DNA of 64,000 bases, from NCBI GenBank assembly GCA_016432425.1, contig CP066688.1, forward strand, positions 20,368-84,367, read 5' to 3'. Source of the stretch: Candidatus Daviesbacteria bacterium (GTDB taxonomy: Bacteria > Patescibacteriota > Microgenomatia > Daviesbacterales > UBA10151). Position 1 is the stretch's first letter. The number at the start of each line of letters is the position of its first letter. Below, one piece after another: positions 28,970 to 64,000 of this stretch. The notes under the pieces are model-generated. The model was not told where the DNA came from. It did not search any database and saw only the letters and a list, made by a program, of their open reading frames with translations. The position numbers were made by a program, and so were the translations under genes.

Positions 28970-30862
28970 TTAAATATCAAATTTAAATTCTTTATCTTGA
29001 TCTAGCTTAAAATTAGCTTCCTGGGAACTGTTTAATTTAATAATATAGCGGAAGTCTTTGGCTCCGGGTTGCTTCTGAATTAATAACTCATATTTATCTC
29101 CCGGTTTGTAGGGAATAATATATTCAAATTCTAGCTTGCGGGAATTTTGGGGCCTGACTGTAATAAAAGCCTCAAAAACAGTTTTGTCTAAATCTTCTAA
29201 AGTCCTGACCCCATCTTCTGAGCCTTTAGAAAAAAGAAGTTTACTACCTTTGGGTACATAAACCCTGACATAATCACGGTTGATCCCGTTTAACCAAATA
29301 TTAAATGGCTGAGGATTTTTATACTCAATAGACAATTTCTTTTTATAACCATAAGTTCCATCAGACTGTTTGCTAATTTCTTGGGTTACGGTTTGCTCCA
29401 CATACAAATTAGACTTCCCTCCGGCAAAATTGGCATCATTAATGTGCAGATAATCACCGCTGTAAGGGCGAATTTGACCTGTCCAATTTAAATTTGAAAA
29501 TGAGGTTTGGACACTACTGTCATGCATGTAAAACATGACATGTTTGTGGTTAGCCAGTCGGACAATTGTCTCCAAAAGTTGTGGAATTCTTTCACTGCTA
29601 CTTCCCAGTGATTTAGCTAAAATTTGTTGCATTAATACTCCTAAAATGGCTTTGCGGTCTTGCTCTCCCCTGGCGGCAATCTCAGAATAATTTTCCAGCT
29701 CATAGATGACATTGGGACAGTTACAACGATGGTCAACTTTGGCAGAATAAGGAGTGCCAAAAATATCAATCGGACCGGTGACCTCGATCAGCTCTTCTAC
29801 CACCTGAGAATCAATAAAAATCACCCCATCAAAAGGTAGGCCTTGCCCTAGCAGTTGGTACATTCTCTCAAATTCTTTGGCTGAAGTTGGCAGGTGCGGC
29901 GAGATATTAGAATCTCTCATACTCCAAGCAGATCTCGCCTTGCCTGAAACTTCCGGTAAATATTTGACGATAGGTTCTGGTGGGGCTAAAGGGCAAATCT
30001 TTGATTGGCAAGTAGCCAACAGCCGCTCATCCAAGCGGTAAATGTCATCGGAGATAGTGGTGGAAATTTGCCCTTTATCAATCCGCAAAAAGGCAAAAGC
30101 GGTGATAAAGCCACCAGTGGGGCGGATTTCTTTATCATTTTGGAATAACATCAGATAATTTTTGGGAGAGTTAATCCCCAGCATGGTGGGCAGCTGCTGC
30201 AGGATATCCCGGTGATTGCTAACCACCTCATCTGCTCCAACTATAAAATCTTTGCTCATTCTGACTAATTGACCAAAGGGCATCCCTCGAAATTCATTAG
30301 GATATTTATTAGTATCAATATTTTCGACACTGCGGCGAGCTTTCTTAAATTGCGGTTGGACACTATCTAGATAAGGCAAAGCTGCTTGCAACAGCTTAAC
30401 TCCTTGAGAAACTCTATCTGGACCAGATAAAGGTGCTCCAATAAAACCTAGTTCCTTTTCTTGGGGCCGCAATTTATTTAAAATAGTTTCTATAGCAGAC
30501 AGTTCTTCTACTCCGGCCCCAGTTAAACTGCGGATATCGGAATAATATCCGCCAACAAAAGGGATGGGGCTCATCCAAATTAAGAAATTCAGCGAAGTAT
30601 TCATCTTTTGTAGTGACTGTTTAGTCGCAGTTACTTCTTGTTGTAATTGTCCAAAATTTTGATTCTGATAAGCAGCAGCCACTGCTTTGGAGTGAAGTTG
30701 TAAATCCTTAACTCCATCAAAGATAATCTTGCCCGGTAAACCCGCTAAAATTACCAAAATTAAAAAAATAATGCCGATCCTAATTAAAAATCTTTTTGCC
30801 CAGGGAGAACGGTTATAATAGTTGCGTCTGTTTAGGCGATTGTTTAAATTAACTAAAGCCAT
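28970..30862 (-). CDS. large membrane-anchored extracytoplasmic protein of unknown function (possibly DUF4012-like)
   Basis: One N-terminal TM helix is followed by a 590-aa external domain. It is the first gene of the glycan locus. The family assignment is by recall only. Confidence 0.55.
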   Translation of the reverse strand: MALVNLNNRLNRRNYYNRSPWAKRFLIRIGIIFLILVILAGLPGKIIFDGVKDLQLHSKAVAAAYQNQNFGQLQQEVTATKQSLQKMNTSLNFLIWMSPIPFVGGYYSDIRSLTGAGVEELSAIETILNKLRPQEKELGFIGAPLSGPDRVSQGVKLLQAALPYLDSVQPQFKKARRSVENIDTNKYPNEFRGMPFGQLVRMSKDFIVGADEVVSNHRDILQQLPTMLGINSPKNYLMLFQNDKEIRPTGGFITAFAFLRIDKGQISTTISDDIYRLDERLLATCQSKICPLAPPEPIVKYLPEVSGKARSAWSMRDSNISPHLPTSAKEFERMYQLLGQGLPFDGVIFIDSQVVEELIEVTGPIDIFGTPYSAKVDHRCNCPNVIYELENYSEIAARGEQDRKAILGVLMQQILAKSLGSSSERIPQLLETIVRLANHKHVMFYMHDSSVQTSFSNLNWTGQIRPYSGDYLHINDANFAGGKSNLYVEQTVTQEISKQSDGTYGYKKKLSIEYKNPQPFNIWLNGINRDYVRVYVPKGSKLLFSKGSEDGVRTLEDLDKTVFEAFITVRPQNSRKLEFEYIIPYKPGDKYELLIQKQPGAKDFRYIIKLNSSQEANFKLDQDKEFKFDI

Positions 30863-31498
30863 TTAAATTGCTCCTTTACCATAGAGTACTGCCGGAATAG
30901 TTTTTAAAATTAACCACAGATCAAAAAAAATACTTCTTTTTTGTACATAATCAGCATCCATTTTGACTCTTCTGTCAAAATCAATTTCTGAACGCCCCGA
31001 AACTTGCCAAAGCCCGGTGAGTCCTGGTTTACCTGATAAAATAATTTTAACATACTCACGGGACTGCGGATATTTTAACTGTTGCTCTTCTAACTCAAAC
31101 GGGTAGTAAGCCCGGGGTCCCACCAAACTCATTTCTCCCTTCAAAATATTAAAAAATTGAGGAAACTCATCAATGGAAAAACGGCGGATAAATTTACCAA
31201 TTTTAGTCACCCTGGGGTCATCAAAAATCTTGTAATTATTTTTTTTATATTCTTCCAACAGCTTGGGATTTTTTTCTAAAATTTCATGGGCATTTTTGAC
31301 CATGGAACGGAATTTATACATTTTAAAAAGTTTCCCGCTTTGCCCTACCCGTTTGGGAGTATCCGCAAAGATTGGCCCAGATGAATCTAATTTAATAGCC
31401 AGTGAAACTAGTAAAAAAATGGGGGATAAAATAATTATCCCCACTAGCGCCCCCACCAAATCAATTATCCGCTTCAGAAAATCATATAACATGGTCAT
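30863..31498 (-). CDS. polyprenyl-phosphate sugar-1-phosphate transferase (small PglC/WbaP-C-terminal type initiating enzyme)
   Basis: The Bac_transf pattern reads IIDLVGALVGIIILSPIFLLVSLAIKLDSSGPIFADTPKRVGQSGKLFKMYKFRSM...DEFPQFFNILKGEMSLVGPRA. Confidence 0.8.
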   Translation of the reverse strand: MTMLYDFLKRIIDLVGALVGIIILSPIFLLVSLAIKLDSSGPIFADTPKRVGQSGKLFKMYKFRSMVKNAHEILEKNPKLLEEYKKNNYKIFDDPRVTKIGKFIRRFSIDEFPQFFNILKGEMSLVGPRAYYPFELEEQQLKYPQSREYVKIILSGKPGLTGLWQVSGRSEIDFDRRVKMDADYVQKRSIFFDLWLILKTIPAVLYGKGAI

Positions 31499-31511
31499 TA
31501 ATTAGTTTACA

Positions 31512-32564
31512 CTACCGGGGCAACTGTTTGCTAAAATTAAGTTTAAAATTTTCCAGGGAAAAACGCCGGGCATTTTTCTGACAATCTTGAGGATTAATCT
31601 GGATATTTTCTAATCTTTTGATAGCCTTTATTAAACTTTCTACTGACTGCTGCGGAAAAAATACTCCGGTTTTACCGCCAATTACCGTTTCCAGCGCCCC
31701 ACCACTTTGATAAGCGATAACTGGTTTACCTAAAGCCTGAGCTTCCAGCGGTGTTAGACCAAAATCTTCTTCTCCTGCTAAAATCAAAGCCCGACAGCCA
31801 GCTAAAAGTCGTACTACCAATTCATCGCTCACCTGACCCAAAAACTCTACCCTGCTGTTACCATCCACCATCTTTCTTAAGTTACTCATCTGCGGACCGT
31901 TGCCTACAATTTTTAAAGGAATTTTTAATTTCTGACAAGCTGTAATTGCCAAATCCACTCTTTTGTATTGGTTTAATCTGGCAATTACTAAAAAATAGCC
32001 TCCATTAAAAATCTCTATGCCTTCAAATCTTTTCAAATCAATATAAGGGTATAAAACTTGAGAGTCCTTATTATAAACCTGTTTAATTCTCTCTTTGGCA
32101 TTTTTTGAACCGGCTAAAAAATAATCCACCCTGGCAGAGGAAACATGATCAAAATATCTTAACCAGTTTAAAAAAGGTATTTTAAATTGACCATTAAAAT
32201 TATATAAAAATCTGGGGGGACTGTGACAATAGCAAATGTGCACGGTTTCTGGCTTAGTAATAATTGCCTTAGCAAAACGGGTAGTATGAGAAATGACTAA
32301 ATCAAAATCAGAGAAATCGAACTGTTCAAAAGCAATTGGATAAAGGGGCAGTAATGCTTTGTAGAGAAATTTCCAACCGGGAATTTTTTGTAAAAAAGAA
32401 GTAATAATTTTTTTGTTAGCAAACCTTTCTTTTAACTGATTATTCGAATAATCGAAAACTGAAGTAAAAATTGGCGCATTGGGATAAATTTGTGTCAATC
32501 CTTCCAAAACTCGCTCCGCTCCACCCCACTGCACCAGGTCATCATGAACAATTGCTACGCGCAT
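31512..32564 (-). CDS. GT4 family glycosyltransferase
   Basis: A GT-B fold with the C-terminal EX7E region EEDFGLTPLEAQALGKPVIA. Confidence 0.75.
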   Translation of the reverse strand: MRVAIVHDDLVQWGGAERVLEGLTQIYPNAPIFTSVFDYSNNQLKERFANKKIITSFLQKIPGWKFLYKALLPLYPIAFEQFDFSDFDLVISHTTRFAKAIITKPETVHICYCHSPPRFLYNFNGQFKIPFLNWLRYFDHVSSARVDYFLAGSKNAKERIKQVYNKDSQVLYPYIDLKRFEGIEIFNGGYFLVIARLNQYKRVDLAITACQKLKIPLKIVGNGPQMSNLRKMVDGNSRVEFLGQVSDELVVRLLAGCRALILAGEEDFGLTPLEAQALGKPVIAYQSGGALETVIGGKTGVFFPQQSVESLIKAIKRLENIQINPQDCQKNARRFSLENFKLNFSKQLPR

Positions 32565-33649
32565 TTTTGATATACCTCCAAAGTTTGTTTAGCTAATTTT
32601 TTCCAGGAAAAATCTTTGACTCTTTGCTGGCCTTTTTTAATTAATTCCTGTCTTAAATTTTCATCATTTAAAACCTGTTGAATTTTTTCCATCATTTCCT
32701 CTAAATTATGGGGGTCAAAATATAAAGCAGCTTCTCCCCCTACCTCCAAAAGTGAACCAGCATTAGAAGAAACTGCCGGACAGGAAGAAGCAAATGCCTC
32801 CAACAAAGGTAAGCCAAAACCTTCCTCATACGAGGGCATGATAAAACACTCTGCATTTTTATATAAAGTTACCAGCTCGCCGTCACTCACAAATCCGGTA
32901 AAAATAATATCGGGATCCTGATATTTCTTTTTTAATTTTTCCCAAAAGAAATGATCATGTCCTGATAAAACTAATTGTAAGGATGGATCATTTTGTCTCA
33001 ATTTTAAAAATACTTCAATTAATCCTTCCACATTTTTATGGGGATGAACATTACCTATATAAAAAATATACGGCGGTTTGATACTAAATTTTTCCCTATT
33101 CAAACTACCTACGGCCGTGATAAGTTTGTCGTCAACTGCTTCCGGAGTAACTATGATTTTTTTATCATCCACCTTCCATTCGTTAATTAATTGATTTTTT
33201 ACAAAATTAGAAGGCGTCAAAATTTGCCGGGATTTTACTACAGCATTTGAAAAAACTTTTTTATAGCCTATTTTTTTTAAATGATAAGTTACAGGGTCTA
33301 AAGTAGTCGCCCTGTTCATAGGATAGTGCTGATGAATCAAGTCATGAATAGTAACCACAAATTTGCCCGTATAAAAAATCGGCACATTAAAATGGGGGAA
33401 ATGAACCAGATCGGGATTTATTTTTTTTAAGATTCCAGGAAGTTTAAATTGTTCTTGCAAAGTATACCATCTAAAATTTACTTCAACTTTTTGGAAATTT
33501 TGAGTTAATTTAAATCTTAAATCCTTTTGCAACAACAAAATAAAATATTCATTAGTTTGATCTAAGGTCTGTAATTCCTGCAACAGATTCCGCAAATACC
33601 TACCAATTCCTGATTCATTTATTAATCTGGCATCAATGGCGATTCTCAT
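32555..33649 (-). CDS. GT4 family glycosyltransferase
   Basis: The EX7E region reads EGFGLPLLEAFASSCPAVSS. It contains an ACGGCCGT-motif copy at 33111-33131. Confidence 0.75.
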   Translation of the reverse strand: MRIAIDARLINESGIGRYLRNLLQELQTLDQTNEYFILLLQKDLRFKLTQNFQKVEVNFRWYTLQEQFKLPGILKKINPDLVHFPHFNVPIFYTGKFVVTIHDLIHQHYPMNRATTLDPVTYHLKKIGYKKVFSNAVVKSRQILTPSNFVKNQLINEWKVDDKKIIVTPEAVDDKLITAVGSLNREKFSIKPPYIFYIGNVHPHKNVEGLIEVFLKLRQNDPSLQLVLSGHDHFFWEKLKKKYQDPDIIFTGFVSDGELVTLYKNAECFIMPSYEEGFGLPLLEAFASSCPAVSSNAGSLLEVGGEAALYFDPHNLEEMMEKIQQVLNDENLRQELIKKGQQRVKDFSWKKLAKQTLEVYQKCA

Positions 33650-33659
33650 AAGGTTCCCC

Positions 33660-34553
33660 TCATACCGTGAGATTTCTTTTAGCTAAAGCCCACTTTAAAT
33701 TAATTCCTAAAAAGACTAGCCAATTAATAAAGAAGGGATAATTTTTCTCCAAATGTTTTTGATAAAAAATTTTCATAGTTTCATAAAAAGAATTAAAAGC
33801 TCGTAGCTGTGACTGCCTGGTGGCAGTAGAGATATTTTGGCTATGTTTTTTTAAGCCCGAAGCCACCCCTTTAAGGTGCAGCACTTTTACCTCTGGCACA
33901 TACATGATTTTAAAACCATTTTGTTTAATCCTAAAACACAAATCTAAATCTTCCCCGTATAACCAATAATCTTCATCAAATAAACCAGTTTTTTCTAAAA
34001 CAGATTTTCGAGTCAACATAAAAGCTCCGGCCAAAGCATCTATCTCGTGAGCTTTGCTCATAGGACGTTTAGTTAAATGGTATAAACTATCATCTCCTAA
34101 AAAGTAATATCTAAAAGCCGCCTCTGGAGTAGGCCAACCTCTGTGAGAGGCCCAATCTAATGTTCCATCAGCTTTTTCCACCCGACAAGTCGAAGCTCCC
34201 ACATCAGGATTTTCTTTCATAAAATTTAACATCAATTCTAATGTACCCGGCAAAACTTGGCTATCGGGATTTAAGATTAAAATATATTCATTTTTAATTT
34301 GTCTCAGAGCCAGATTATTAGCTTTACCAAAGCCTAAGTTTTGCTTTTCGAGTAAATAATTTACATGAGGATATTTTTTGCGCGCTTTTTTAATACTAGT
34401 GTCTAGCGAGGCATTATCTACCACCCAAATCTCTAGATTAACCTCATTTTTAACTTGCTCTAGTGAATCCAAACATTCCACTAAAAAATCACCGCTATTA
34501 AAATTGACAATCACTACGCTTAAATTGTTATTAATCTTTTTTAAAACTTTCAT
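33660..34553 (-). CDS. GT2 family glycosyltransferase
   Basis: VVIVNFNSGDFLVECLDSL...VVDNASLD is the GT-A N-terminus, with the DxD region YGEDLDL. Confidence 0.75.
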   Translation of the reverse strand: MKVLKKINNNLSVVIVNFNSGDFLVECLDSLEQVKNEVNLEIWVVDNASLDTSIKKARKKYPHVNYLLEKQNLGFGKANNLALRQIKNEYILILNPDSQVLPGTLELMLNFMKENPDVGASTCRVEKADGTLDWASHRGWPTPEAAFRYYFLGDDSLYHLTKRPMSKAHEIDALAGAFMLTRKSVLEKTGLFDEDYWLYGEDLDLCFRIKQNGFKIMYVPEVKVLHLKGVASGLKKHSQNISTATRQSQLRAFNSFYETMKIFYQKHLEKNYPFFINWLVFLGINLKWALAKRNLTV

Positions 34554-35721
34554 AGATGTGGCTTAAATTTTGGGCAATTTTTTCGTAAGAATATTCTTCT
34601 TCTACTAATTTGCGCGCTTTTTCCGCTATCTCCTGATATTTTTGCCGGTCATTTAATAAACCAATTGCCAGTTCCGCCAAAATTTCACTACTTTGGCCCA
34701 CCAATACTGACTGACCATTTTTGGCAGCTATTCCCTCAATGCCAATTTGGGTCGTTACCACTGGCACTTTGGCCGCCATTGCTCCCAAAATTTTTAATCT
34801 GGTACCCCCCGGGCCATACAAAGGAGCTACCAAAATACCGGCCTGCAAATAAGCAAGTCTTACTCCCTCGACATCATCAATTTCTAAATCCAGTAATTTA
34901 ATATGATCTCCTTTTAAATCATTTAATTTATCAGTATTTTGCCCCGCTATTATTAGCTGCGCTTCCGGAATCTGTTTTAAAATCCGCGGAAAAACTTCTT
35001 TAGCTAAAATATTAGCTGCTTCAATGTTTTGTAACCAGGCATAATTACCCATAAAAAGAATCTTTTGGGAAAAATGTAACGGTGGATTTTCCATTAAATC
35101 TTCACCCACTCCGTTAGGAACTACATCTACCCGCAAACCTTTGACCAAATTTTTCATAGCCTCTGCATCCCTGGTGGATACTGCCACCACCCGCGAAGCT
35201 TTTTTCCAAAAATAAGTTTCCCAAAATTTAATTTTTAAGACGTCAACCATCAGCAGCGGCTTTAAAAAAAAGAGGGGGAAATTTCGCACAAAATGATGAT
35301 AAACTTCAAATTCAATGGTTTGGTCAACTAAAATAATGGGGATTCGAGTTTTGGGAATATGAGGGCTGACATAAAAAGTTTCTGCATGAATAATATCAAA
35401 GTGGCTATTTGTTAAAATTTCCTGAATCTTTTTTTTCTCTTCTTTAGAATAATTCCTAATTACTAAAAACGGATATAAACTGGTGGCAGTCTTTAAAATA
35501 TTTGATATCGACCAAGGATGTTCTGCTCTTTTAAAAACAAAAACTTCCTGGCAATACTTTTTTAAATTATCAATATATTTTTTTTCAGATTCATATTTAA
35601 TTAAAGAACAAAGAGTAATTTGATGTTTTTGGGAAAGTTGTTTAATCAAATTATAAGAGCGGATTTGTCCTCCGCTTGAGGGCGGATAAGGTAAGTATGG
35701 TGTGAGCATTAATATTTTCAT
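34531..35721 (-). CDS. GT4 family glycosyltransferase
   Basis: A GT-B C-terminal domain (APLYGPGGTRLKILGAMAAKVPVVTT) with an N-terminal Rossmann-like half. Confidence 0.7.
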   Translation of the reverse strand: MKILMLTPYLPYPPSSGGQIRSYNLIKQLSQKHQITLCSLIKYESEKKYIDNLKKYCQEVFVFKRAEHPWSISNILKTATSLYPFLVIRNYSKEEKKKIQEILTNSHFDIIHAETFYVSPHIPKTRIPIILVDQTIEFEVYHHFVRNFPLFFLKPLLMVDVLKIKFWETYFWKKASRVVAVSTRDAEAMKNLVKGLRVDVVPNGVGEDLMENPPLHFSQKILFMGNYAWLQNIEAANILAKEVFPRILKQIPEAQLIIAGQNTDKLNDLKGDHIKLLDLEIDDVEGVRLAYLQAGILVAPLYGPGGTRLKILGAMAAKVPVVTTQIGIEGIAAKNGQSVLVGQSSEILAELAIGLLNDRQKYQEIAEKARKLVEEEYSYEKIAQNLSHIYESFKKD

Positions 35722-53117: not shown

Positions 53118-53128
53118 GAGCTAATCGC

Positions 53129-55186: not shown

Positions 55187-55830
55187 TGACTAAACCTAAA
55201 GAAAAAACTCTGACTGCTATTTGGCAACAAGTTCCGGCAGACTATTACGACCAAGGAATGCAGAATAATTTTCTGCAATTTATTTGGCACCGACAAAAGT
55301 GGACCTTTTTCCGAAAACTTATGGAGGGAGTAAAATTTAAATTAATTTTAGATGTTGGTTGTGCCAGCGGCACTTTTACCAACAGGTTAACGGAACTTTT
55401 CCCTCAGGCAAAAATTTATGGAGTGGATGCTTACAGTTCTGCCATTAAATTTGCCCAAAAAAAATATCCTCATCTAAATTTTTTGAAAGCCGACGCTCAC
55501 CAGCTACCCTTTAAACAAAATTCTTTTGACTTAGTTATTTGCTATGAAACCATTGAGCACGTAGTCGACCCGCTCCAGGTTTTAAGACAGATGCACAGAA
55601 TTTTAAAAAAAGACGGTCTGGCCATTTTGGCAATGGACTCGGGTAATTTGATGTTTAGAACTATTTGGTGGTTCTGGGGAAAAACCAAGGGTCGGGTTTG
55701 GGAAGGGGCACATTTGCACCCTTTTCATCATGACCATTTGGAAGAAATTGTGCAAAAAAGTGGTTTTAAAATTCAACAGAAAAAATTTTCCCACTTCGGA
55801 ATGGAAGTAGTGTTCGTTCTCAAAAAATGA
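55186..55830 (+). CDS. class I SAM-dependent methyltransferase (type 11)
   Basis: Motif I ILDVGCASGTF, post I LVICYETIEHV and motif III LKKDGLAIL. Confidence 0.75.
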   Translation: MTKPKEKTLTAIWQQVPADYYDQGMQNNFLQFIWHRQKWTFFRKLMEGVKFKLILDVGCASGTFTNRLTELFPQAKIYGVDAYSSAIKFAQKKYPHLNFLKADAHQLPFKQNSFDLVICYETIEHVVDPLQVLRQMHRILKKDGLAILAMDSGNLMFRTIWWFWGKTKGRVWEGAHLHPFHHDHLEEIVQKSGFKIQQKKFSHFGMEVVFVLKK

Positions 55831-55876
55831 AGGGGATCTTCTAATTGCATTATGAGGGGGACCCTCTAATTATATT

Positions 55877-57829
55877 ATGAAAAATCGTATCTTAGTATTG
55901 TCTTTTTTATCCATACTAGTACTGCTACTGTTTCTACCATTTATTTTAAATCCTCAATTATTACTAAACCGCAATAATGATTTGCAGGAAGTTTTTGGCC
56001 CCATATTTTTGTTTATAAAACAGCAGGTAATTACCAACCACCAGTTCCCTTTTTGGAATAGTCCGTGGTTTGCCGGCCAACCACTACTACCAGATCCTCA
56101 ATTTTCCTTTTTTTATCCGCCTAATTTATTGTTCTTAATTTTACCAATTGGCACAGCATTCATTGTAACTTTCTTTTTTCATCTTTTAATGGGCGGGGTG
56201 GGAATTTTTTTAATTTCTTCTAATATTTTTAAACTCTCAAAATTTAGCAGTTTATTTAGCGCAACTTTATATATCAGCTCACCTAAAATCATGGGGTTCC
56301 TGGTGGCCGGCCATGTGGGATTGGTAGAATCCAGTGCTTGGATCCCTTGGGTAATTTTAGCCACCATTAAACTCTCTTCATCAGCCAACATCTACTGGGT
56401 ACTGCTGTTATCGGCAAGTTTAGCCGGGTTATTTTTTACTCATACAGTTATTTTTATGATCACTATAAGTAGCAGTATCGCATTATTTTTGTATTGTTTA
56501 ACTCTCCAAAGAAAAAATATTTCGTTATCATTCAGGTTTATATTTTTAGCACTCGTAGGTACCGGCGGGCTGACAGCAGTCACCTTGCTACCCCAGCTGG
56601 AATGGTTAAAATCTACTACCAGATTCTTACTATTAAATACTAGAGAAGTTTTTCCTCAATGGAACTCTGTCGGGGAATTTATTAAATCGGTACTGGCTTC
56701 CGTTTACAACCTAAAAAATTTACAAAATATTGACAGCGAAAAATGGCTGCCCTTGGGACTCTTGGTAATTATTTTGTCACTCATTGGTTTTTTAAATTTA
56801 AAGAGAAAATTTAAAATTATTTTGTCAGTAACTCTAGTCTCGATAACACTAATTTCTTTAAATAACGCTTCACCGCTCTATCAATTTTTTTTGAAATTAG
56901 ATCCATATGTCTTAATGCGAGTTTCTACCAGAGTTTGGTTTGTGACGATTATCATTACTACCTTCTTAGCTAGTTTAGGAATTGAATATATTAGAAAAAA
57001 ATTTGGATTTAAAATCGCCGTTGTTATTGCAATTTTAGCGGTAGCAGAATTGTATTCTATTTCCTGGATATATATGCTCAAACCAGTGGAGCAAATCAAT
57101 TTTGCTCCTATTGAAGTTACTAACTATTTTAAAAATGACCACAACCTCTATCGAGTTTTCTGTGTCACCAGATGTTTATCTCAAAAAGAAGCTGCTGAAA
57201 ATAAATTAGAACTTATCGAAGGATACAATACCATCCAGCAATACAATTATTATAAACAGTCCTGGCAGCTGATGGGCAATTACTGGAATTATTATACTTT
57301 AGCCATCCCCCCTTTCGGCATTACCGAGTATGAACAGCTCAAACCGGACGCAAAGTCCCTGGGGGAATTTAATACTAAATATATTATCTCTCCCTATCCG
57401 CTGGAGGATCAAAACTTGAAGCTAGATCAAAAAATTAACGATTTCTTTATTTATCAAAATAACCTTTTTAAACCGCGTTCATATTTTTTTGATGCCGAGA
57501 TAGGAATTTTAGATGGTGCTAAAATTAATTACTACTCCCCTAATTTAGTCCGTGTGGATACATCTGCAAAATTAGCCAGCAGGGTAATCTTGGCTCAAGT
57601 TTATAGCCCGGGCTGGAATGCTTATTTGAATGGGCAAGAAAAAACTCCGGTTCTGGAGCGGCCAAATGCTTTAATGTTGGTTGATATTAAACCCACCACT
57701 AAATATGTTGATTTTCGATACGAGCCCGGTAGTTTTAAAATCGGTTTAATAATTAGTTTAGTAACCTTATCCTTTTACTGTTTTCTTTTAATTAAGGGAA
57801 AGGTCAACTTAAAATGGCTGCAAATCTAA
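55877..57829 (+). CDS. YfhO-like polytopic membrane protein (putative GT-C glycosyltransferase)
   Basis: The N-terminal pattern NDLQEVFGPIFLFIKQQVITNHQFPFWNSPWFAGQPLLPDPQFSFFYPPNLLF resembles YfhO family proteins. It has more than 12 TM helices and a C-terminal external domain. Confidence 0.5.
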   Translation: MKNRILVLSFLSILVLLLFLPFILNPQLLLNRNNDLQEVFGPIFLFIKQQVITNHQFPFWNSPWFAGQPLLPDPQFSFFYPPNLLFLILPIGTAFIVTFFFHLLMGGVGIFLISSNIFKLSKFSSLFSATLYISSPKIMGFLVAGHVGLVESSAWIPWVILATIKLSSSANIYWVLLLSASLAGLFFTHTVIFMITISSSIALFLYCLTLQRKNISLSFRFIFLALVGTGGLTAVTLLPQLEWLKSTTRFLLLNTREVFPQWNSVGEFIKSVLASVYNLKNLQNIDSEKWLPLGLLVIILSLIGFLNLKRKFKIILSVTLVSITLISLNNASPLYQFFLKLDPYVLMRVSTRVWFVTIIITTFLASLGIEYIRKKFGFKIAVVIAILAVAELYSISWIYMLKPVEQINFAPIEVTNYFKNDHNLYRVFCVTRCLSQKEAAENKLELIEGYNTIQQYNYYKQSWQLMGNYWNYYTLAIPPFGITEYEQLKPDAKSLGEFNTKYIISPYPLEDQNLKLDQKINDFFIYQNNLFKPRSYFFDAEIGILDGAKINYYSPNLVRVDTSAKLASRVILAQVYSPGWNAYLNGQEKTPVLERPNALMLVDIKPTTKYVDFRYEPGSFKIGLIISLVTLSFYCFLLIKGKVNLKWLQI

Positions 57830-59238
57830 TTAACCATTTACCAAAATATATCAAAGAATATTTATTAATTGGTTTGATACTTTTAGCTGCCCTGGTGGGG
57901 AGGATTTTATATTTATCACCCTATTTAGAAGATTGGGATAGCGTCCAATTTGCTCTGGCGATGAACCATTTTTCTCTGATTAAAGAGTTACCACATGCCC
58001 CCGGTTACCCACTATATATTTTGCTGGGAAATTTTATGAAGATTTTCTTTTCCTCGGATAATCTAGCTTTAACCATTCTCAGTGCAATGACGGGATCAGC
58101 AACAGTCTTAGTTACTTATTTATTAACTCAAAAAATGTTTAATAATAAATTAACTGCTTTAGGGGCAGCTTTAATTTTTACTTTTATTCCGGTAAGCTGG
58201 AGTCTGTCTGAACAAGCTTTAACTAACGTTCCTGGTTTATTTTTTCTTTCTTTGCTAGCTTACTTACTGTATAAATTTATCGACAACCCCAAAATTATTA
58301 TCCTGATCAGTTTTTTATTTGGGCTGCTGTTAGGACTACGGTTTACTGAACTGCCGATCATAATGGCTTTACTTTTATTTGTATTTGCTTGGAAGAGAAA
58401 TTTAAAACTAGTTTTGTTTTCTTCTTTAAGTTTTGTTGTAGGTATACTCTTTTGGCTGGGACCTTTAATTATAGTCACCGGCTGGACAGACTTTGTTAAA
58501 GCATACCTCAAGATTGCCAATTATATTTTCAATCATGATTCTTTACTGGGAGGTGACCGTTATGGTTTTTATCTAATACGCCTTAGATTAAATCACTTAT
58601 TTTATATTTTGAAAATCGCTTATGGGCAGATCTTCATTCTCATCTCTATACTAATACTAGCATTTACAATCTGGCAAAAAAAACAAAGGACAGATAGTAG
58701 AATTCAATTTTTATTAGTTTGGTTTTTAACATATTTAGTCTTCCTTGTTTTCTTCTTTAATTTGGAAGTTACTCGTTACAGCTTACCTCTAACTGTCCCC
58801 TTAGCCATTTTAACAGCTGCTGCCTTAAGTAAGTTAATCACCAATAAAACAATCTATACAGCAGTAATTTTAGTAACTTGTGTAATTTTGTTTAAAGACT
58901 CTTATTATCAAGTAAGTCAATTCAAAAATTCTCTCCCCCCTACTATGGCTCCGGTTCTTTTGGTTAAAAAAGAGTTCAGTTCATCTGAAACTACTCTTAT
59001 TCCCACTTTGTTAAAACGTCATTTTCAATACTACACTCCGCAGTTCTCATTGGTTGATTTAGATGAGTTCCACTCTCAAATTATCACCAGTAAATTCGTC
59101 ATTATTGATCATCTTTCCACCATTGATAAAATTAAAGATTTGCGCAGTTACAAACTTAAGGATAAAAAAGAATTTTATGGAGATCGGGAAATCTATAACC
59201 GGGTCCCCCGCACTACTATTTATATTTTAGAAAAATGA
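57814..59238 (+). CDS. DUF2723/TMEM260-like GT-C membrane protein (putative protein O-mannosyltransferase family)
   Basis: The first loop DSVQFALAMNHFSLIKELPHAPGYPLYILLG matches the DUF2723 signature (D..EF..A.....aHPPGYPL). About 11 TM segments are present. Confidence 0.55.
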   Translation: MAANLINHLPKYIKEYLLIGLILLAALVGRILYLSPYLEDWDSVQFALAMNHFSLIKELPHAPGYPLYILLGNFMKIFFSSDNLALTILSAMTGSATVLVTYLLTQKMFNNKLTALGAALIFTFIPVSWSLSEQALTNVPGLFFLSLLAYLLYKFIDNPKIIILISFLFGLLLGLRFTELPIIMALLLFVFAWKRNLKLVLFSSLSFVVGILFWLGPLIIVTGWTDFVKAYLKIANYIFNHDSLLGGDRYGFYLIRLRLNHLFYILKIAYGQIFILISILILAFTIWQKKQRTDSRIQFLLVWFLTYLVFLVFFFNLEVTRYSLPLTVPLAILTAAALSKLITNKTIYTAVILVTCVILFKDSYYQVSQFKNSLPPTMAPVLLVKKEFSSSETTLIPTLLKRHFQYYTPQFSLVDLDEFHSQIITSKFVIIDHLSTIDKIKDLRSYKLKDKKEFYGDREIYNRVPRTTIYILEK

Positions 59239-59242
59239 ATAG

Positions 59243-60949
59243 TTACTTTTTAATTAAATAATTTTCTAAAATTAATACATCCAGTTCACTGTTCATAAAT
59301 GTATTGTAAGCTTCCTCATTAGTATTAACTATTGGCTCACCTTTTAAATTAAAAGAGGTATTGAGCAATGTTGATATTCCTGTTTGCTCACCAAAACTTT
59401 TTACCAGATTATAATAAGCAGGGTTAATGGGTTTCTTAATCAGTTGGGGGCGGGCTGTCCCGTCTACATGAGTAACCGCCCCTAATTTAGCTTGCCAAGA
59501 CTTCTTAACCGGTACTACCGCCAGCATATACTCTAAAATAGGAGGGATCGCGGATCCAATTTCAAAATACTGCGATCCTTTTTCATACAAAGATACCGGG
59601 GCAAAAGGCCTAAAGGCTTCCCTAAATTTAATTTTTTTATTTACCAAATCTCTCATTTTTTTACTTCTCGGATCAGCCAAAATGCTGCGCGCCCCCAAAG
59701 CCCGGGGTCCCCATTCAAATCTACCTTTAACCCAACCAATTACTTTACCCGCAGCCAAAAGTTCTGTCACTTGATTATTTAAATCTTGGTCAGAAAGTCT
59801 TTTGGCAGTTAAATTGTTTACTCTTAAAAATTGTTTGACTGAAGACTCTGAGTTCTGCTGCCCCAAAAATACATCCTGAAAAGATTTTTTTCTTGGTTTA
59901 CCTAAAATATGGTAATAAAGATAAAGGGCGGCTCCCACTGCCCCTCCGGAATCCCCTGCCGCCGGATGAATAAAAATATTTTTAAAGCCGGCTTCTTTAA
60001 ATATCCGCCAATTAGCTACCCCGTTTAAAGCCACTCCTCCGCCATAACATAAATTTTCCTCACCGGTTTCCTGTTGCAAAGCTTTAGCAATTACTAACAG
60101 TTTTTCTTCTAAAACTTTTTGGGCGCTAGCAGCAATATCGGCATATTTAATAAAAACTTGATCACCATCTTTGGGGTTAACAGGAGGCAATTTAAAAAGC
60201 TTGACAAATTTATCAGTAAAACTCTTTTTTTCGGAGACATGGAAATTAAAATAATCTATATTCAACCTGAAAGAACCATCTTCCGCTTGTCTAATTAGCT
60301 TTTCTACTTCTGCCACATATTTGGGCTGGCCGTAAGGCGCTAACCCCATTACTTTATATTCTCCTTCATTAATCTCGAACCCTAAATATTGGGTAAAGGT
60401 ACTGTAAAAAAGACCCAGCGAGTGAGGAAATTTTATTTCTCTGTTTAAAACTAGCTTATTACCTTGACCTTTTCCCAAAGCCGTGGTGGTCCACTCCCCC
60501 ACCCCATCACAAGTTAAAATAGCGGCTGATTTAAAATCACTGGTGTAATAAGAGCTGGCAGCATGGGAAAGATGATGGCCGCCAAAAAAAATTTTTTTGG
60601 CTGGAATTTTTAGAGTTGAGGCAATCGTGGCTTTAACCCACAATTTATTTTTTAACCAAGTTTTATAAGCATCTGTAAATAAACCCCTCGCTACTGGTAC
60701 GGTTGCCAGAGCAGATAAAGTGATTCTTTCAAATTTAGTGAACGGTTTTTCATAAAAAATTACATAATCTAAATCTTGGGCAGCAATTTCGGCAAAATTT
60801 AGGCAAAAAGCAATTGCTTGTTTGGGGAAACTAGAGTCGTGTTTTATCCGAGAAAACCGCTCTTCCTCGGCCGCTGCTAAAATTTGGCCATCTTTAATTA
60901 AAGCAGCCGCCCCATCATGGTAATAACAAGAGATTCCTAAAATATACAT
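59243..60949 (-). CDS. carbamoyltransferase (NodU/CmcH family)
   Basis: The N-terminus ILGISCYYHDGAAALIKDGQILAAAEEERFSRIKHD matches Carbam_trans_N, and a C-terminal Carbam_trans_C-like region is present. Length is 568 aa. Confidence 0.8.
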   Translation of the reverse strand: MYILGISCYYHDGAAALIKDGQILAAAEEERFSRIKHDSSFPKQAIAFCLNFAEIAAQDLDYVIFYEKPFTKFERITLSALATVPVARGLFTDAYKTWLKNKLWVKATIASTLKIPAKKIFFGGHHLSHAASSYYTSDFKSAAILTCDGVGEWTTTALGKGQGNKLVLNREIKFPHSLGLFYSTFTQYLGFEINEGEYKVMGLAPYGQPKYVAEVEKLIRQAEDGSFRLNIDYFNFHVSEKKSFTDKFVKLFKLPPVNPKDGDQVFIKYADIAASAQKVLEEKLLVIAKALQQETGEENLCYGGGVALNGVANWRIFKEAGFKNIFIHPAAGDSGGAVGAALYLYYHILGKPRKKSFQDVFLGQQNSESSVKQFLRVNNLTAKRLSDQDLNNQVTELLAAGKVIGWVKGRFEWGPRALGARSILADPRSKKMRDLVNKKIKFREAFRPFAPVSLYEKGSQYFEIGSAIPPILEYMLAVVPVKKSWQAKLGAVTHVDGTARPQLIKKPINPAYYNLVKSFGEQTGISTLLNTSFNLKGEPIVNTNEEAYNTFMNSELDVLILENYLIKK

Positions 60950-60950
60950 T

Positions 60951-61178
60951 TTATTGTTTTTTCAAATCTTTTATCTTAAAATAATTATCTTTAAAATCCT
61001 CCCATTTGGGACTGTCTTTAACATGCAGAAAATCAGCCAAAACCTGGGTTATTAAACCCAAAGGGGTTGCCAGTATAAAATATAATAAAGAAAAAACAAC
61101 TGTGACCTGGAAATTACCTATTTTTTCGGCAATTTTTTTCCATTTTTCCCAAACTTTTTTCATAAAAATATTACTCAA
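60951..61178 (-). CDS. small membrane protein (75 aa), often found 3' of carbamoyltransferase genes
   Basis: A single TM helix (VTVVFSLLYFILATPLGLITQVL). Its stop is 2 nt after the carbamoyltransferase start. Confidence 0.45.
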   Translation of the reverse strand: MSNIFMKKVWEKWKKIAEKIGNFQVTVVFSLLYFILATPLGLITQVLADFLHVKDSPKWEDFKDNYFKIKDLKKQ

Positions 61179-61388
61179 ATATATTTTAGAAGAGCGGATA
61201 AATTATGGGAGCCAAGGGAGAGGAACCCACTAATAAAATTAATAGCCCTACTACTAGGAATACTAGCATCATGGGGATTAACCACCACAATTTTCTTCTC
61301 CATAAAAATATAAAAAATTCTTTGACTATTTCAAACCTATTTAATAAATCATTCATTAAACAACCTTAACATATTAAAAATATAGTTT

Positions 61389-62846
61389 TCAATATGGAAA
61401 AAATGGTGTTAAAGATATCATTTTTTCCTGGTTATATTTTTCACTATCAATCGCTTCATAGTAAACCTTAATCGATAAATCGTTATATAAAAGTTTCAGT
61501 GCATCTGATCCCGATAGTATGTAAAATACTTGTTTAGAAGAGCTTCCCCAATCTTGAGAAATATAGGGATAACCAGGATCATCCTTTATGAAAAAGTTTG
61601 CTCCTTTATCTATTTGAGGAACTTCATGTTTAATACTACTTAGTATCACTTTTGCGGCCTTTGCCCTTTTGGCAGCCCAATGGGTGCTTTGATTAAGTTG
61701 GATAGTTTGCCAAGATAGCCCTAAAAATGCTACCACAAAAAATATCACCACAAATTTACCTATTTTTTGCCAGGTCAATAAATTAGAGATCGGATAGACG
61801 ATAAATCCTGCAAAAAATACCAGTGGTAAATTTAAGTAATAACTAAAAATATGTTTCGGGAAAAAAATAAAAGGTGTCAGCGAAATGATAAATGAAAAAA
61901 ATAAAAAATAAAAAATGGAATTTAAATTGCGAAAATATCTCCCAAAAGCAATGGCGACAGTTATAAGTATAATACCAATAATTGGTGTTATAAGTAGTAA
62001 ATAATCTCCATAATATTTAAATAGATTAGGGTTTATTTCAAATTTTAAGGTCATAAAATCTCTTAACATTTCAGGCAAACCTATGGTCCACAAGGATAAC
62101 CATACAAATGAATTTATCACACTAGGCGGAGAAAACACTGGTTGATATACTTGCTGTTGAGAAATTCCGAAATAAGCAAAATGGACAAGTATTCTTAAAA
62201 ATAAAAGTAGCACGAATGGCAGCAGATTAATAACTATCCTTCTAAAAGAATTTTTCTTGCAGAAAACTTCATATAAAAATAAAATACCAATCAGTACTGC
62301 CGCTGATTCATGTGATAGTAACGCTGTAATAAAAACTAATATAGATAAGTACCAATTAATAATTTTTCTTCCTGTAGAAAATTTATGATAATTTAACAAA
62401 CCAACTAACACAAAAAATGTAGAAAGTAATGTTTGAACAGATGATAAATAGTATAATTCAACACTATGTATAGGACTAATCAGATAAATTAAAAAGGCTA
62501 AAAAACCAATCAGTTCTTTTTTGCTAACCATCTTTATGAGTAGGAAAACTAAAAAAGAATTAATAAATATTAAAACTAGGTTTATTAAATGATATGGAAA
62601 TGGATTTAAATTATACAACTTGAACATGATAAAATTATATAATTCTCGACTTAAAGGGCGATAAAAGGTTTGTTCATCGCTAAATTTAGGAATAAACAAT
62701 GACGGGAGATCTGTTATTTCTTTTCCCAACAATAATCTTAAATGGAAAAAATCATCTTGGGAAAAATAAGAATTGAGAGCATTCCAATTAAAAATTATCA
62801 GTATAAAAACTGACAAGAAGATTACAAAAACGTTAAGAATTTTCAT
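61389..62846 (-). CDS. polytopic membrane protein, putative GT-C-type glycosyltransferase (PMT-like loop motif)
   Basis: The first loop reads SQDDFFHLRL...FYRPLSRELYNFIMFKLYNLNPFPYHLINLVLIF (DD...FRPL...G.NP..YH..N pattern). About 12 TM segments are present. Confidence 0.45.
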   Translation of the reverse strand: MKILNVFVIFLSVFILIIFNWNALNSYFSQDDFFHLRLLLGKEITDLPSLFIPKFSDEQTFYRPLSRELYNFIMFKLYNLNPFPYHLINLVLIFINSFLVFLLIKMVSKKELIGFLAFLIYLISPIHSVELYYLSSVQTLLSTFFVLVGLLNYHKFSTGRKIINWYLSILVFITALLSHESAAVLIGILFLYEVFCKKNSFRRIVINLLPFVLLLFLRILVHFAYFGISQQQVYQPVFSPPSVINSFVWLSLWTIGLPEMLRDFMTLKFEINPNLFKYYGDYLLLITPIIGIILITVAIAFGRYFRNLNSIFYFLFFSFIISLTPFIFFPKHIFSYYLNLPLVFFAGFIVYPISNLLTWQKIGKFVVIFFVVAFLGLSWQTIQLNQSTHWAAKRAKAAKVILSSIKHEVPQIDKGANFFIKDDPGYPYISQDWGSSSKQVFYILSGSDALKLLYNDLSIKVYYEAIDSEKYNQEKMISLTPFFPY

Positions 62847-62857: not shown

Positions 62858-63247
62858 TTATTTTTTAAATACATTACTGTTAATATTTTCAACTAAAAAT
62901 AGTGCCGTTCCAAGTATTAATGTTTGATATACATAAACCGCTGTCCTTTCAGCCCAGACCTCAATTCCACTCAACCTTAAAAAGGCGGCAAAAAGCCACA
63001 GTATCAACCCAATAATAAAAAATGTTTTGCTTCTGGCTCCAATAAGAAATGCTGTTGCCAGCAGTGACATAAATACTACTGCATTTATAGTGATAGAATA
63101 ATAAGGAGAAAAATAGCCTCCCGAGCGAAGCAGTAATAAAAGTATGACTAGAATATTAAATACAAAAAGGCCAACAAGATGATTTTGAGTCCATTTGCTT
63201 AATATCTTTTGATATTGTTTTTTATAACCCAAAATCTCCTTCATCAT
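62858..63247 (-). CDS. hypothetical 4-TM membrane protein
   Basis: 129 aa with four hydrophobic helices. No motif. Confidence 0.45.
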   Translation of the reverse strand: MMKEILGYKKQYQKILSKWTQNHLVGLFVFNILVILLLLLRSGGYFSPYYSITINAVVFMSLLATAFLIGARSKTFFIIGLILWLFAAFLRLSGIEVWAERTAVYVYQTLILGTALFLVENINSNVFKK

Positions 63248-63265
63248 GTTATATAATTTATTACT

Positions 63266-64000
63266 TTATAGTTTATTTTTCCCAGAAACTCTCTTTGAAA
63301 TAAATTGAGCAACAAAATACGTCGTAACTGTAAGCAGCGTTAAACTGGAAATTATAAATCCTATTAACCATAGCTTTTGGCGTTGATAAGAAATTATCAT
63401 CTGATATTTTTTCGGGGTTTCCGGAATGTACCAAGCATTGGCATAAAGGTTGGTAGAAAAATGTATCGGCACAACTTTGAGTTTTTCACCTGTTTCGCTA
63501 AATAAGCTAACTTCCCAGAAGGGTGAGTAATTCTCAGAAAAAACAATGACGTGCGAACCTGAAACTTTATCTATCTCTGCTTTGTAGTAAACAGGTGAAA
63601 TTCTCTTTAATTTTACTTCTGGAGTATCAAGAAGAACAGGTAAGTTTGCTTTGGCGAAAATTAGATTATTAGAAAATATTTTATAAACAAATAAATCATC
63701 ATATATAACTTTTGTCCCTAGTGGATCTTTAATAAGGGGAGCAATCAAAGAAATTCTCATCGTAGAATCAGTAACTACGGGATTATAAAAGAAATTAAAA
63801 GTATGCATCTGTGGATAGTTCGGTAATCTTTCAGTCTGGGCTTTAATCAGGGTATTTTGATTCTGTTGATAAACTATACTACTAGCATTATTCCCATAAA
63901 TTTGCTGGTACTTTAAAGCTATAAAATATGTAGCGAATGGATCAAAAGAGGAAACTATAAAATCGGCAGACGGCTCTCTGGCTTCAAGTCCCTTATTAAG
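63266..64000 (-). CDS. hypothetical protein, N-terminus outside window (5'-partial)
   Basis: The minus-strand frame stays open without stops from 63808 to the window edge at 64000, so the ORF-track start at 63808 is probably internal. A C-terminal TM helix is present. Confidence 0.5.
   Translation of the reverse strand, partial: LNKGLEAREPSADFIVSSFDPFATYFIALKYQQIYGNNASSIVYQQNQNTLIKAQTERLPNYPQMHTFNFFYNPVVTDSTMRISLIAPLIKDPLGTKVIYDDLFVYKIFSNNLIFAKANLPVLLDTPEVKLKRISPVYYKAEIDKVSGSHVIVFSENYSPFWEVSLFSETGEKLKVVPIHFSTNLYANAWYIPETPKKYQMIISYQRQKLWLIGFIISSLTLLTVTTYFVAQFISKRVSGKNKL

Follow-up and report, generated by a model that had tools for sequence, protein, structure and literature searches.

Introduction

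What does a bacterium with a reduced genome build with 33 consecutive glycan genes, and did it inherit or capture them? The question is posed by a stretch of 64,000 nucleotides from Candidatus Daviesbacteria (assembly GCA_016432425.1, contig CP066688.1, positions 20,368 to 84,367 of the forward strand), hereafter called the window, in which such genes form an unbroken run from position 28,970 to 64,000. The host belongs to the Patescibacteria/Microgenomates group of the candidate phyla radiation (CPR). With their minimal genomes, CPR bacteria are without most biosynthetic pathways and, to our knowledge, the chemistry of their envelope is essentially unknown. No description of such a locus was found in the literature.

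A preliminary description of the window, made from its sequence alone, had read this run as a complete glycan assembly and decoration line of exceptional glycosyltransferase density, and its richness in AT as a sign of lateral acquisition. The first part of that reading holds and the second does not: the run is probably part of a super-locus that measures at least 53.7 kb, is inherited vertically and builds a complex cell-envelope glycan.

Extent and gene content of the locus

About 30 consecutive glycan genes had been announced and 33 are present, in a window that holds 62 open reading frames (ORFs) of at least 100 amino acids (aa). Among them are 18 glycosyltransferases in 35 kb, namely one phosphoglycosyltransferase (PGT), six GT4, four GT2 and seven GT-C enzymes, together with the 3' end of an eighth GT-C gene. 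One of the GT-C proteins, of 902 aa, is identical to HYW45_00370 of a Candidatus Daviesbacteria metagenome-assembled genome, on a contig of 820,589 bp.

Position 64,000, formerly taken as the right end of the locus, is merely the edge of the window, and what had been listed as a 180-aa ORF (63266-63808) belongs in fact to an AftD-like gene of 1020 aa that the window edge cuts, leaving its 3' end inside (63266-64000, minus strand, frame open to 64000; last 244 codons). The continuation was read from two independent Logan assemblies (L082 and L163, from two sequencing runs), found by exact-protein look-up. L082 differs from the window by one mismatch over 11,143 nt and L163 by none over 3,960 nt, and both continue past it: L163:1-19466 corresponds to window-equivalent positions 63.3-82.7 kb, and glycan genes extend at least 18.7 kb beyond the window. 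The full 1020-aa gene, with a Pfam GT-C_AftD match, is present in L082 (6920-9982) and in L163. The whole locus thus measures at least 53.7 kb, a lower bound, its right end not having been reached, and takes up about 6.5% of the 820,589-bp contig; the window covers its proximal two-thirds. Over this length, 29 glycosyltransferases are counted (one PGT, six GT4, 11 GT2 and 11 GT-C-like), as well as six methyltransferases.

From 53,028 down to 28,970, the genes form an array of 21 co-directional genes on the minus strand, with gaps of at most 35 bp and many overlaps, in which GT-C genes lie among those of GT4 and GT2 enzymes and stop and start codons overlap. After 35 bp, this array runs into recO, a class II aminoacyl-tRNA synthetase (aaRS) gene and the dcw cluster, from mraZ to ftsZ.

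Conservation among Microgenomates

Related loci were collected by means of two scans: (i) a genome scan with the family of the 902-aa protein, taking one genome per species (80 loci); and (ii) a metagenome scan with the family of the GT-C enzyme at 35718-37178, named GTC1 (80 loci). Gene order was then read by tblastn of all window proteins against these loci. The same order is found almost everywhere, in more than 100 loci, in records named Daviesbacteria, Woesebacteria, Blackburnbacteria, Levybacteria and Microgenomates. With genes of variable presence in brackets, it runs from the AftD-like gene through the 129-aa gene, a variable segment, the 650-aa gene (-), the 902-aa gene, Wzx, GT2, a methyltransferase, GT-C, GT4, GT2 and GT-C; then through GT4, GT4, the left-handed beta-helix (LbH) acetyltransferase, the 190-aa gene, (GT2), the Wzy-like gene, GT-C, GT4, (GT2), GT4, GT4 and the PGT; and finally through DUF4012, RecO, aaRS, the 305-aa gene, MraZ and MraW.

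Core gene pairs are adjacent in 85-100% of loci. Where both genes occur, this applies to RecO and DUF4012 in 30/30 loci, to DUF4012 and the PGT in 33/33, to GT4c and GTC1 in 70/70, to GT2d and Wzx in 54/55, and to Wzx and the 902-aa gene in 51/57. The junction DUF4012-RecO-aaRS-MraZ is kept in every related locus that covers it, and both gene order and the junction of RecO with the dcw cluster persist down to about 35% identity. Where a locus also includes RecO and aaRS (24 loci), the identities of seven glycan proteins (DUF4012, PGT, GT4a, GT4b, GTC1, GT4d and GT4e) correlate with those of the housekeeping proteins (r 0.79-0.88), with mean identities of 52-68% and 56%, respectively. As judged from these comparisons, the locus is ancestral, common to Microgenomates and vertically inherited.

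Among L002-L081, many of the species-representative records with the locus bear the title "uncultured Gammaproteobacteria bacterium", and one bears that of "Woesearchaeota archaeon"; such labels look like placeholders or errors.

Components at the cytoplasmic face

The gene inventory of the preliminary description proved essentially right. Its single PGT, six GT4 enzymes, Wzx flippase, LbH acetyltransferase, two SAM-dependent methyltransferases, carbamoyltransferase and RmlD-like reductase are all borne out by Pfam, and its five to seven polytopic GT-C-type proteins become seven, at the upper end of the range (four by Pfam, three by profile comparison or structural modelling). Its GT2 enzymes number four, not five, since the fifth "GT2-like" gene found no support.

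The PGT (30863-31498) is a small monotopic polyprenyl-phosphate hexose-1-phosphate transferase of 211 aa (Pfam Bac_transf, 206 bits), of WbaP/EPS_sugtrans-like type according to NCBIfam (EPS_sugtrans/WbaP C-terminal domain, 244-253 bits). The GT4 enzymes are (i) GT4a (31512-32564; Glycos_transf_1, 104 bits), syntenic in 43 loci; (ii) GT4b (32555-33649; Glycos_transf_1, 123 bits); (iii) GT4c (34531-35721; Glyco_trans_1_4, 66 bits), the neighbour of GTC1; (iv) GT4d (40643-41821; Glycos_transf_1, 125 bits); (v) GT4e (41767-42792; Glycos_transf_1, 82 bits); and (vi) GT4f (45068-46018; Glycos_transf_1, 103 bits).

All four GT2 enzymes match Glycos_transf_2: GT2a (33660-34553; 92 bits); GT2b (38534-39412; 70 bits), which ends in a transmembrane segment (TM; residues 257-275); GT2c (44232-45077; 116 bits); and GT2d (48247-49101; 57 bits), next to Wzx. 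GT2a and GT2b, whose presence varies by lineage, are paralogues with 33% identity, both of them absent from the closest group of loci (L083-L108) and present in more distant ones, a pattern that points to modules being gained or lost while the gene order around them stays fixed.

Decoration within the array would fall to a WcaF-like LbH O-acetyltransferase (39983-40624; Hexapep, 62 bits; median 62% identity in 58 loci), which scores 98.6 bits against the NCBIfam WcaF family, under the family cut-off, and to the SAM-dependent methyltransferase MT1 (47443-48246; Methyltransf_23, 95 bits). The acetyltransferase gene adjoins, in 33/33 loci, that of a conserved 190-aa protein with hydrophobic segments at both termini (39414-39986), for which neither Pfam nor NCBIfam gave a match, orthologues included.

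Flippase and Wzy-like protein

A Wzx-type flippase of the MOP superfamily, with about 12-14 predicted TMs, is encoded at 49068-50333 (Pfam Polysacc_synt, 76 bits; cut-off 28.2). Another polytopic protein, a putative polymerase or ligase of 463 aa and 11 TMs (37171-38562), had been presented as a Wzy_C protein. By itself it remains under the Pfam cut-off (24.8 bits against 31.7), and it is rescued by its relatives. Pfam was run on a pool of 105 orthologues that represent five families (that of the Wzy-like protein and those of the proteins of 129, 190, 485 and 650 aa), with matches not assigned to individual members; this pooled scan gave 20 Wzy_C matches for 22 Wzy-like orthologues, with a best E-value of 2.3e-9. 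Polymerase, ligase and oligosaccharyltransferase cannot be told apart by sequence in this case.

In five related loci, one ORF of about 1070 aa joins the Wzy-like protein to a PMT_2-like GT-C domain (L066:16105-19338, L068:16578-19766, L073:11767-15003, L077:16778-20050 and L078:16165-19401). All five belong to one lineage, whose only named record is a Levybacteria (L068). Such a "Rosetta-stone" arrangement suggests that the Wzy step and the GT-C activity work together.

A separate and strong Wzy_C gene (O-antigen-ligase/PglL-like, 64 bits) lies 23 kb from the locus, at 4092-6013 on the plus strand. It overlaps a gene for a membrane-anchored protein with Big/Glucodextranase_B domains, it is flanked by tRNA-Gly and tRNA-Val, and its product could, by its sequence, be a protein O-oligosaccharyltransferase.

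GT-C membrane enzymes

Four of the seven GT-C enzymes are recognized by Pfam: (i) GTC1 (35718-37178), PMT_2-type, with 486 aa and about 9 TMs (PMT_2, 46.8 bits; D36, D44, D65 and D66 conserved after TM1); (ii) GTC2 (42805-44235), PMT_2-type, with 476 aa (61 bits; D24-E25 conserved after TM1); (iii) GTC3 (46003-47418), PMT_2-type, with 471 aa (29 bits; E27 conserved), which matches GTC1 and GTC2 at 97% probability in hhalign, i.e., in the profile-profile comparison of family alignments built from the related loci; and (iv) GTC4 (57814-59238, plus strand), of TMEM260/PMT_2 type (TMEM260-like, 47.6 bits; PMT_2, 33 bits), present in four related loci.

The other three, of 902, 650 and 485 aa, have no Pfam match of their own and 9-12 predicted TMs each; the NCBIfam search of unannotated proteins returned nothing usable. 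For the 902-aa protein (50320-53028), a search of PDB sequences with the family profile gave only noise, so that a fold search was needed. An AlphaFold model built from 81 homologues (pLDDT 92.6, pTM 0.91) consists of a TM bundle at the N-terminus, an extracytoplasmic domain containing CBM6-like modules and a TM anchor at the C-terminus. Searched against the PDB with Foldseek, it places AftD first (6w98, E 6.8e-10), followed by STT3, AglB, PglB, DPY19 and AftA, and its soluble part matches CBM6 modules. Some orthologues match PF10131, and D35, after TM1, is invariant.

The 650-aa protein (55877-57829, plus strand; about 11 TMs plus a C-terminal TM) has the same architecture and is YfhO/AftD-like: its family matches that of the 902-aa protein at 98.5% in hhalign (E 1.7e-15). 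In the pooled scan, which included 22 orthologues of this protein, a few sequences matched YfhO, PTPS_related or GT-C_AftD. The polytopic 485-aa protein (61389-62846, minus strand) is related to PMT_2 enzymes, with hhalign matches to GTC1-4 at 95-97% (E 1e-8 to 1e-11) and with the four PMT_2 matches of the pooled scan attributed to its group. As hhalign controls, Wzx, the Wzy-like protein and the 129-aa protein gave less than 10% in most pairs; the pair of the 650-aa and Wzy-like families reached 48% over only 44 columns.

Directly after TM1, all seven families keep an acidic residue. In the three families without Pfam match, it lies in the first extracytoplasmic loop (D35 in the 902-aa protein, D35 in the 650-aa protein and D31 in the 485-aa protein) and is at least 90% conserved in the family alignments. 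Taken with the profile comparisons and the structural model, these residues indicate that the three proteins are members of the GT-C superfamily.

Variable segment and distal extension

Upstream of the array, the segment 53129-62846 varies among relatives: the RmlD-like gene occurs in two related loci, the SGNH gene in three, GTC4 in four and the carbamoyltransferase gene in ten. The segment encodes, on the plus strand, an RmlD-like NAD(P)-dependent sugar reductase (53129-54019; Pfam RmlD_sub_bind, 146 bits; NCBIfam rmlD, 145.7 bits, cut-off 224), a membrane-anchored protein (54020-55186) and the SAM-dependent methyltransferase MT2 (55186-55830; Methyltransf_11, 89 bits). The membrane-anchored protein had been introduced as an SGNH hydrolase or acyltransferase accessory protein; it does show SGNH/AlgX-like signals, which fall below both Pfam cut-offs (ALGX, 23.5 bits; Lipase_GDSL_2, 20.5 bits), and its assignment as an O-acetyl esterase or transferase stays tentative.

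On the minus strand, an O-carbamoyltransferase of NodU/CmcH type (59243-60949; Carbam_trans_N, 280 bits; Carbam_trans_C, 226 bits) is preceded directly by two small genes, which occupy what had been described as a 439-bp gap. They encode membrane proteins of 70 aa (60951-61163, minus strand; called as a gene in independent assemblies and lacking a family match) and 56 aa (61186-61356, minus strand; Pfam DUF5989, 59.6 bits). This pair presumably resembles SxtJ/SxtK, the companions of the carbamoyltransferase SxtI.

Beyond this segment, a conserved 129-aa protein with four predicted TMs (62858-63247, minus strand) adjoins the AftD-like gene in 15/15 loci. No Pfam or NCBIfam family matched it; a role as flippase for lipid-linked sugars or as accessory subunit is possible. 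The orthologues of the AftD-like protein are 950-1170 aa long, and this family is a paralogue of the 902-aa protein (over residues 220-500 of the 1020-aa protein).

The extension past the window encodes, in order, the 1020-aa GT-C_AftD protein; a polytopic protein of 696 aa that ends in a discoidin (F5/8 type C) domain; a methyltransferase; a GT2 that ends in two TMs; a polytopic protein of 896 aa that likewise ends in a discoidin domain; a Methyltransf_13/14 protein; a GT2; a 734-aa PMT/PMT_2 protein; and two methyltransferases and five GT2 enzymes. It thus adds seven GT2, three complete GT-C-like genes plus the rest of the AftD-like gene, and four methyltransferases. One of its GT2 enzymes, with two C-terminal TMs (L163:691-1629, window-equivalent 81,103-82,041), is homologous over its full length to ArnC (E 1.1e-44) and GtrB (E 1.6e-32), which makes it a predicted polyprenyl-phosphate sugar synthase. 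Another candidate for a GtrB-like synthase, the distal 312-aa GT2 with two C-terminal TMs, was discarded, as it matches generic GT2 enzymes only.

The DUF4012 protein

The last gene of the array, between the PGT gene and recO, encodes a membrane-anchored protein of 630 aa with one N-terminal TM (28970-30862; Pfam DUF4012). It is the most conserved protein of the locus, with 61-80% identity among Daviesbacteria and 2335 matches. DUF4012 proteins are widespread in Gram-positive exopolysaccharide loci. In its structural model, Foldseek finds entries of the LytR-CpsA-Psr (LCP) family (3owq, 3pe5) at probability 0.99 and with weak E-values. We take 3pe5, 3okz and 4obm to be LCP proteins; five other entries are labelled so by the search output. 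An LCP-like fold is suggested by this model, and suggested only, and on that basis the protein may be a glycopolymer ligase that attaches the product. Two parts set the protein apart from LCP ligases: an additional long, helical domain at the N-terminus and a beta-sandwich domain at the C-terminus. The DUF4012 family, like many membrane-protein families, is enriched in CPR/Microgenomates, and its enrichment extends to Gram-positive bacteria (Meheust et al., 2019, PMC6744442); in Bifidobacterium longum 105-A, a DUF4012 gene lies between a priming transferase gene and wzz (PMC5412050).

Proposed pathway and number of products

Three bodies of knowledge frame the interpretation of these parts. 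A PGT, GT-A/GT-B enzymes, Wzx and Wzy make up the standard lipid-linked repeat-unit pathway; GT-C enzymes work at the outer face with polyprenyl-phosphate sugars from GtrB/ArnC/DPM1-type GT2 enzymes; and LCP enzymes transfer polyprenyl-pyrophosphate-linked polymers to peptidoglycan.

In the order of steps that we infer, the small WbaP-type PGT would prime a polyprenyl-phosphate carrier at the cytoplasmic face, the six GT4 and several GT2 enzymes would lengthen the lipid-linked oligosaccharide, and the cytoplasmic acetyl-, methyl- and carbamoyltransferases would decorate it. Wzx would then flip the decorated oligosaccharide to the outer face, where the Wzy_C protein would polymerise or transfer it. 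There, the battery of GT-C enzymes (seven in the window, eleven in the locus) would add further residues from polyprenyl-phosphate-monosaccharide donors, made by the distal ArnC/GtrB-type GT2; that these are the donors is presumed from the GT-C families and from the presence of that homologue in the locus. These GT-C enzymes are PMT_2/TMEM260-like and AftD/YfhO-like, and several have CBM6 or discoidin sugar-binding domains. Finally, the DUF4012 protein might move the finished polymer from the lipid carrier onto peptidoglycan or another envelope acceptor. A long, heavily modified heteropolymer or several glycans, the two outcomes foreseen in the preliminary description, are reasonable expectations from this inventory, from which the product itself is deduced.

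The main rival holds that the locus makes two or more glycoconjugates: a Wzx/Wzy polysaccharide and, via lipid-linked monosaccharides, a PMT_2/TMEM260-like O-glycosylation of surface proteins such as S-layer proteins or pilins. PMT_2/TMEM260-type enzymes are protein O-mannosyltransferases in other organisms, and four or five of the GT-C enzymes belong to families whose characterised members glycosylate proteins. The locus is modular, as seen in the block lost in one lineage (detailed below), in the coming and going of GT2a and GT2b and in the variability of 53129-62846; its distal part deviates in GC content at third codon positions (GC3); and a GtrB/ArnC-type synthase, a small four-TM protein and a GT-C enzyme form the pattern of a stand-alone three-component system. 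Against these points stands the fact that at least 53.7 kb contain no more than a single PGT gene, a single Wzx gene and a single Wzy_C gene. Moreover, the interleaving of GT-C with GT4 and GT2 genes, with overlapping stops and starts in one co-directional array, is itself conserved; the Wzy-like::GT-C fusion links both kinds of enzyme; and polymers are the substrates, in known systems, of AftD/YfhO-like GT-C enzymes that carry carbohydrate-binding modules. Production of two or more glycoconjugates is hence a serious if rather unlikely alternative.

The preferred reading, that of one super-locus for a complex envelope glycan, has in turn to accommodate several observations that weigh against it. 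Some concern missing partners. No Wzz match above noise was found by Pfam among the 33 genes, and the gene list of the 18.7 kb past the window includes no Wzz/PCP chain-length regulator; besides the one RmlD-like gene, the sequenced part of the locus has no genes for nucleotide-sugar synthesis. The GT2 enzymes of the window were considered as GtrB-like donor synthases and rejected, PDB searches having given generic GT2 matches only (for GT2b and, with DPMS at just 38 bits, for GT2c). The 129-aa protein and 16 orthologues carry no GtrA signature at E<=0.01, topology alone being GtrA-like.

Other observations concern the unity of the locus. In the lineage L066-L079, the one with the Wzy-like::GT-C fusion, the block Wzx-GT2d-MT1-GTC3-GT4f-GT2c-GTC2-GT4e is absent, a modularity that might reflect two or more products. 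GC3 in the distal part (61.4-82 kb, for the most part past the window edge) is 0.265, below that of the housekeeping genes (p=5e-5). Some GT-C enzymes of the locus, by their kinship with PMT_2/TMEM260 enzymes that glycosylate proteins elsewhere, may do likewise instead of acting on the polymer. Finally, as regards the attachment step, the DUF4012 model is of medium confidence (pLDDT 80.5, central domain 54-93); Foldseek ranks other folds first for its C-terminal beta domain; the DUF4012 profile found no LCP match among PDB sequences; and a Pfam search with LytR_cpsA_psr revealed no canonical LCP protein in the window, the DUF4012 protein matching DUF4012 only.

Vertical descent or lateral acquisition

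Is the locus a laterally acquired, strain-variable island of the O-antigen or capsule type? The preliminary description had argued for lateral acquisition from AT-richness, and the difference in composition is real: the in-window locus has a GC content of 0.355, about 3 points under that of the upstream housekeeping genes (0.385, p=0.002). The deficit sits in codon positions 1 and 2 (for GC2, p=0.0004) and spares GC3 (p=0.31), a pattern to be expected of proteins that are rich in membrane segments and differ in composition. By segment, GC3 is 0.326 in the housekeeping genes, 0.319 in the core (28970-53028, p=0.49) and 0.330 in the middle part (53129-60949, p=0.85). The lower GC3 of the distal part occurs despite the conserved, syntenic AftD-like and 129-aa genes found there.

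Signs of mobility are equally missing. There is no tRNA gene beside the locus (tRNA scan); no integrase, transposase or other mobility gene flanks it (Pfam); the repeat scan returned no flanking repeats, only AT-rich chance matches and one pair of paralogues; and megablast, which detects high-identity DNA, found no match to the locus in plasmid and phage collections. The overall GC content, the low distal GC3 and the differences between relatives in 53129-62846 speak for an island. Against it, the core has the GC3 of the housekeeping genes, gene order and the RecO/dcw junction are kept in all relatives down to about 35% identity, and the locus diverges in step with housekeeping genes. The normal GC3 of the core, the lack of mobility signs, the conserved junction and the co-varying identities lead to the rejection of a lateral acquisition of the core, and an island of this kind is very improbable; of the earlier argument, the lower GC content stands and the lateral origin drawn from it does not.

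That an assembly or binning chimera joins unrelated contigs, an eventuality named beforehand and conceivable for a metagenome-assembled genome, can be set aside with hardly any reservation, because two independent Logan assemblies reproduce and continue the sequence with 0-1 mismatch over 4-11 kb and more than 100 other assemblies have the identical gene order.

Comparison with known systems

In its logic, the locus comes closest to the mycobacterial and corynebacterial arabinogalactan/LAM systems (GlfT, AftA-D, EmbA-C, Lcp1). In both, cytoplasmic GT-A/GT-B enzymes build, or are here predicted to build, a lipid-linked primer that many GT-C enzymes extend outside from polyprenyl-phosphate sugars, and the number of glycosyltransferases is comparable. 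As in AftD, large enzymes combine extracytoplasmic carbohydrate-binding modules with a C-terminal TM; AftD is the best PDB match of the 902-aa protein, and the 1020-aa protein matches GT-C_AftD, while sequence identity between AftD and the locus protein is about 10%. The arabinogalactan/LAM product is attached by an LCP enzyme; here, the candidate ligase is the DUF4012 protein and a canonical LCP protein is lacking. Unlike those systems, the locus begins with a small WbaP-type PGT instead of WecA, exports by means of Wzx and a Wzy_C protein, shows none of the genes for DPA synthesis (UbiA, DprE1/2) and belongs to a reduced CPR bacterium.

Next come the loci for rhamnose-rich wall polysaccharides of streptococci and lactococci (gacA-L; cwps of L. 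lactis), in which GT-C enzymes add side chains. With them and with the three-component systems (GtrA/GtrB/GtrV; CsbB/GtcA/YfhO), the locus shares a monoderm-type envelope, an RmlD-like gene, a GtrB/ArnC-type GT2, YfhO-like and other GT-C enzymes acting outside the membrane, and exchangeable modules. It differs from the former in that no rhamnan ABC transporter is encoded in it, from the latter in that its small four-TM partner is devoid of a GtrA signature, and from both in having far more GT-C genes and in being larger and phylogenetically much more stable.

With the Wzx/Wzy loci for O-antigen, capsule or colanic acid (such as the wca cluster of E. coli), the locus has in common the PGT, GT4 and GT2 enzymes, the WcaF-like acetyltransferase, Wzx and the Wzy_C protein. 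In contrast with them, it has no Wzz/PCP or outer-membrane export genes, contains 3-6 times more glycosyltransferases, with seven to eleven GT-C enzymes, and is conserved across a class-level clade where those loci vary between strains. The comparison with typical O-antigen or capsule loci in the preliminary description is in consequence misleading, for the locus behaves as a core, clade-defining envelope pathway. By its gene content, it is assigned to none of these systems by any defining feature: known parts appear in a combination of which the literature searches gave no account.

Gene-for-gene conservation and the link to the cell-division and peptidoglycan cluster point to a complex surface glycan that is a core, selected feature of these bacteria, not an accessory antigen. 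Several families of "hypothetical membrane protein", whose enrichment in Microgenomates has been reported, find an explanation in the locus, and the DUF4012 family gains a testable function in the form of an LCP-like ligase. Together with the AftD/YfhO-like GT-C enzymes and the Wzy-like::GT-C fusion, it is a candidate for structural and biochemical work. One may go further and speculate, with considerable doubt, that Microgenomates (perhaps other CPR bacteria too) have a clade-defining, arabinogalactan-like wall heteroglycan, made by about eleven GT-C enzymes on a primer from the Wzx/Wzy pathway and anchored by DUF4012 as a highly divergent, hitherto unrecognised branch of LCP-type ligases. 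If this were true, such a glycan, with about 6-7% of a genome of less than 1 Mb devoted to it, would be a main commitment of these reduced cells and would probably help to determine the integrity of the envelope or attachment to a host.

Regulatory signals and other features of the window

The two directions of transcription are separated by a divergent intergenic region of 100 bp (53029-53128), whose best sigma-70-like match (11/12) lies at 53089-53117 on the plus strand. Across the region as a whole, the promoter scan gave no more promoter-like sites than in shuffled controls. Terminator-like sites exceed shuffled controls in 44-64 kb only (32 vs 16.6, sd 4.5).

A protein of 305 aa with a TM at its N-terminus and no family match is encoded between mraZ and the aaRS gene (25791-26708, minus strand); it is conserved, with about 60% identity in 13 loci. 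The dcw cluster (18567-22280, minus strand) looks unusual in three respects: (i) its "MurB" ORF has only 195 aa and covers the FAD_binding_4 part; (ii) its two Mur ligases, of 398 and 405 aa, are short and give no match to the N-terminal Mur_ligase domain; and (iii) a protein with a PaaX_M (Cas2-like) domain is inserted between murE and ftsI.

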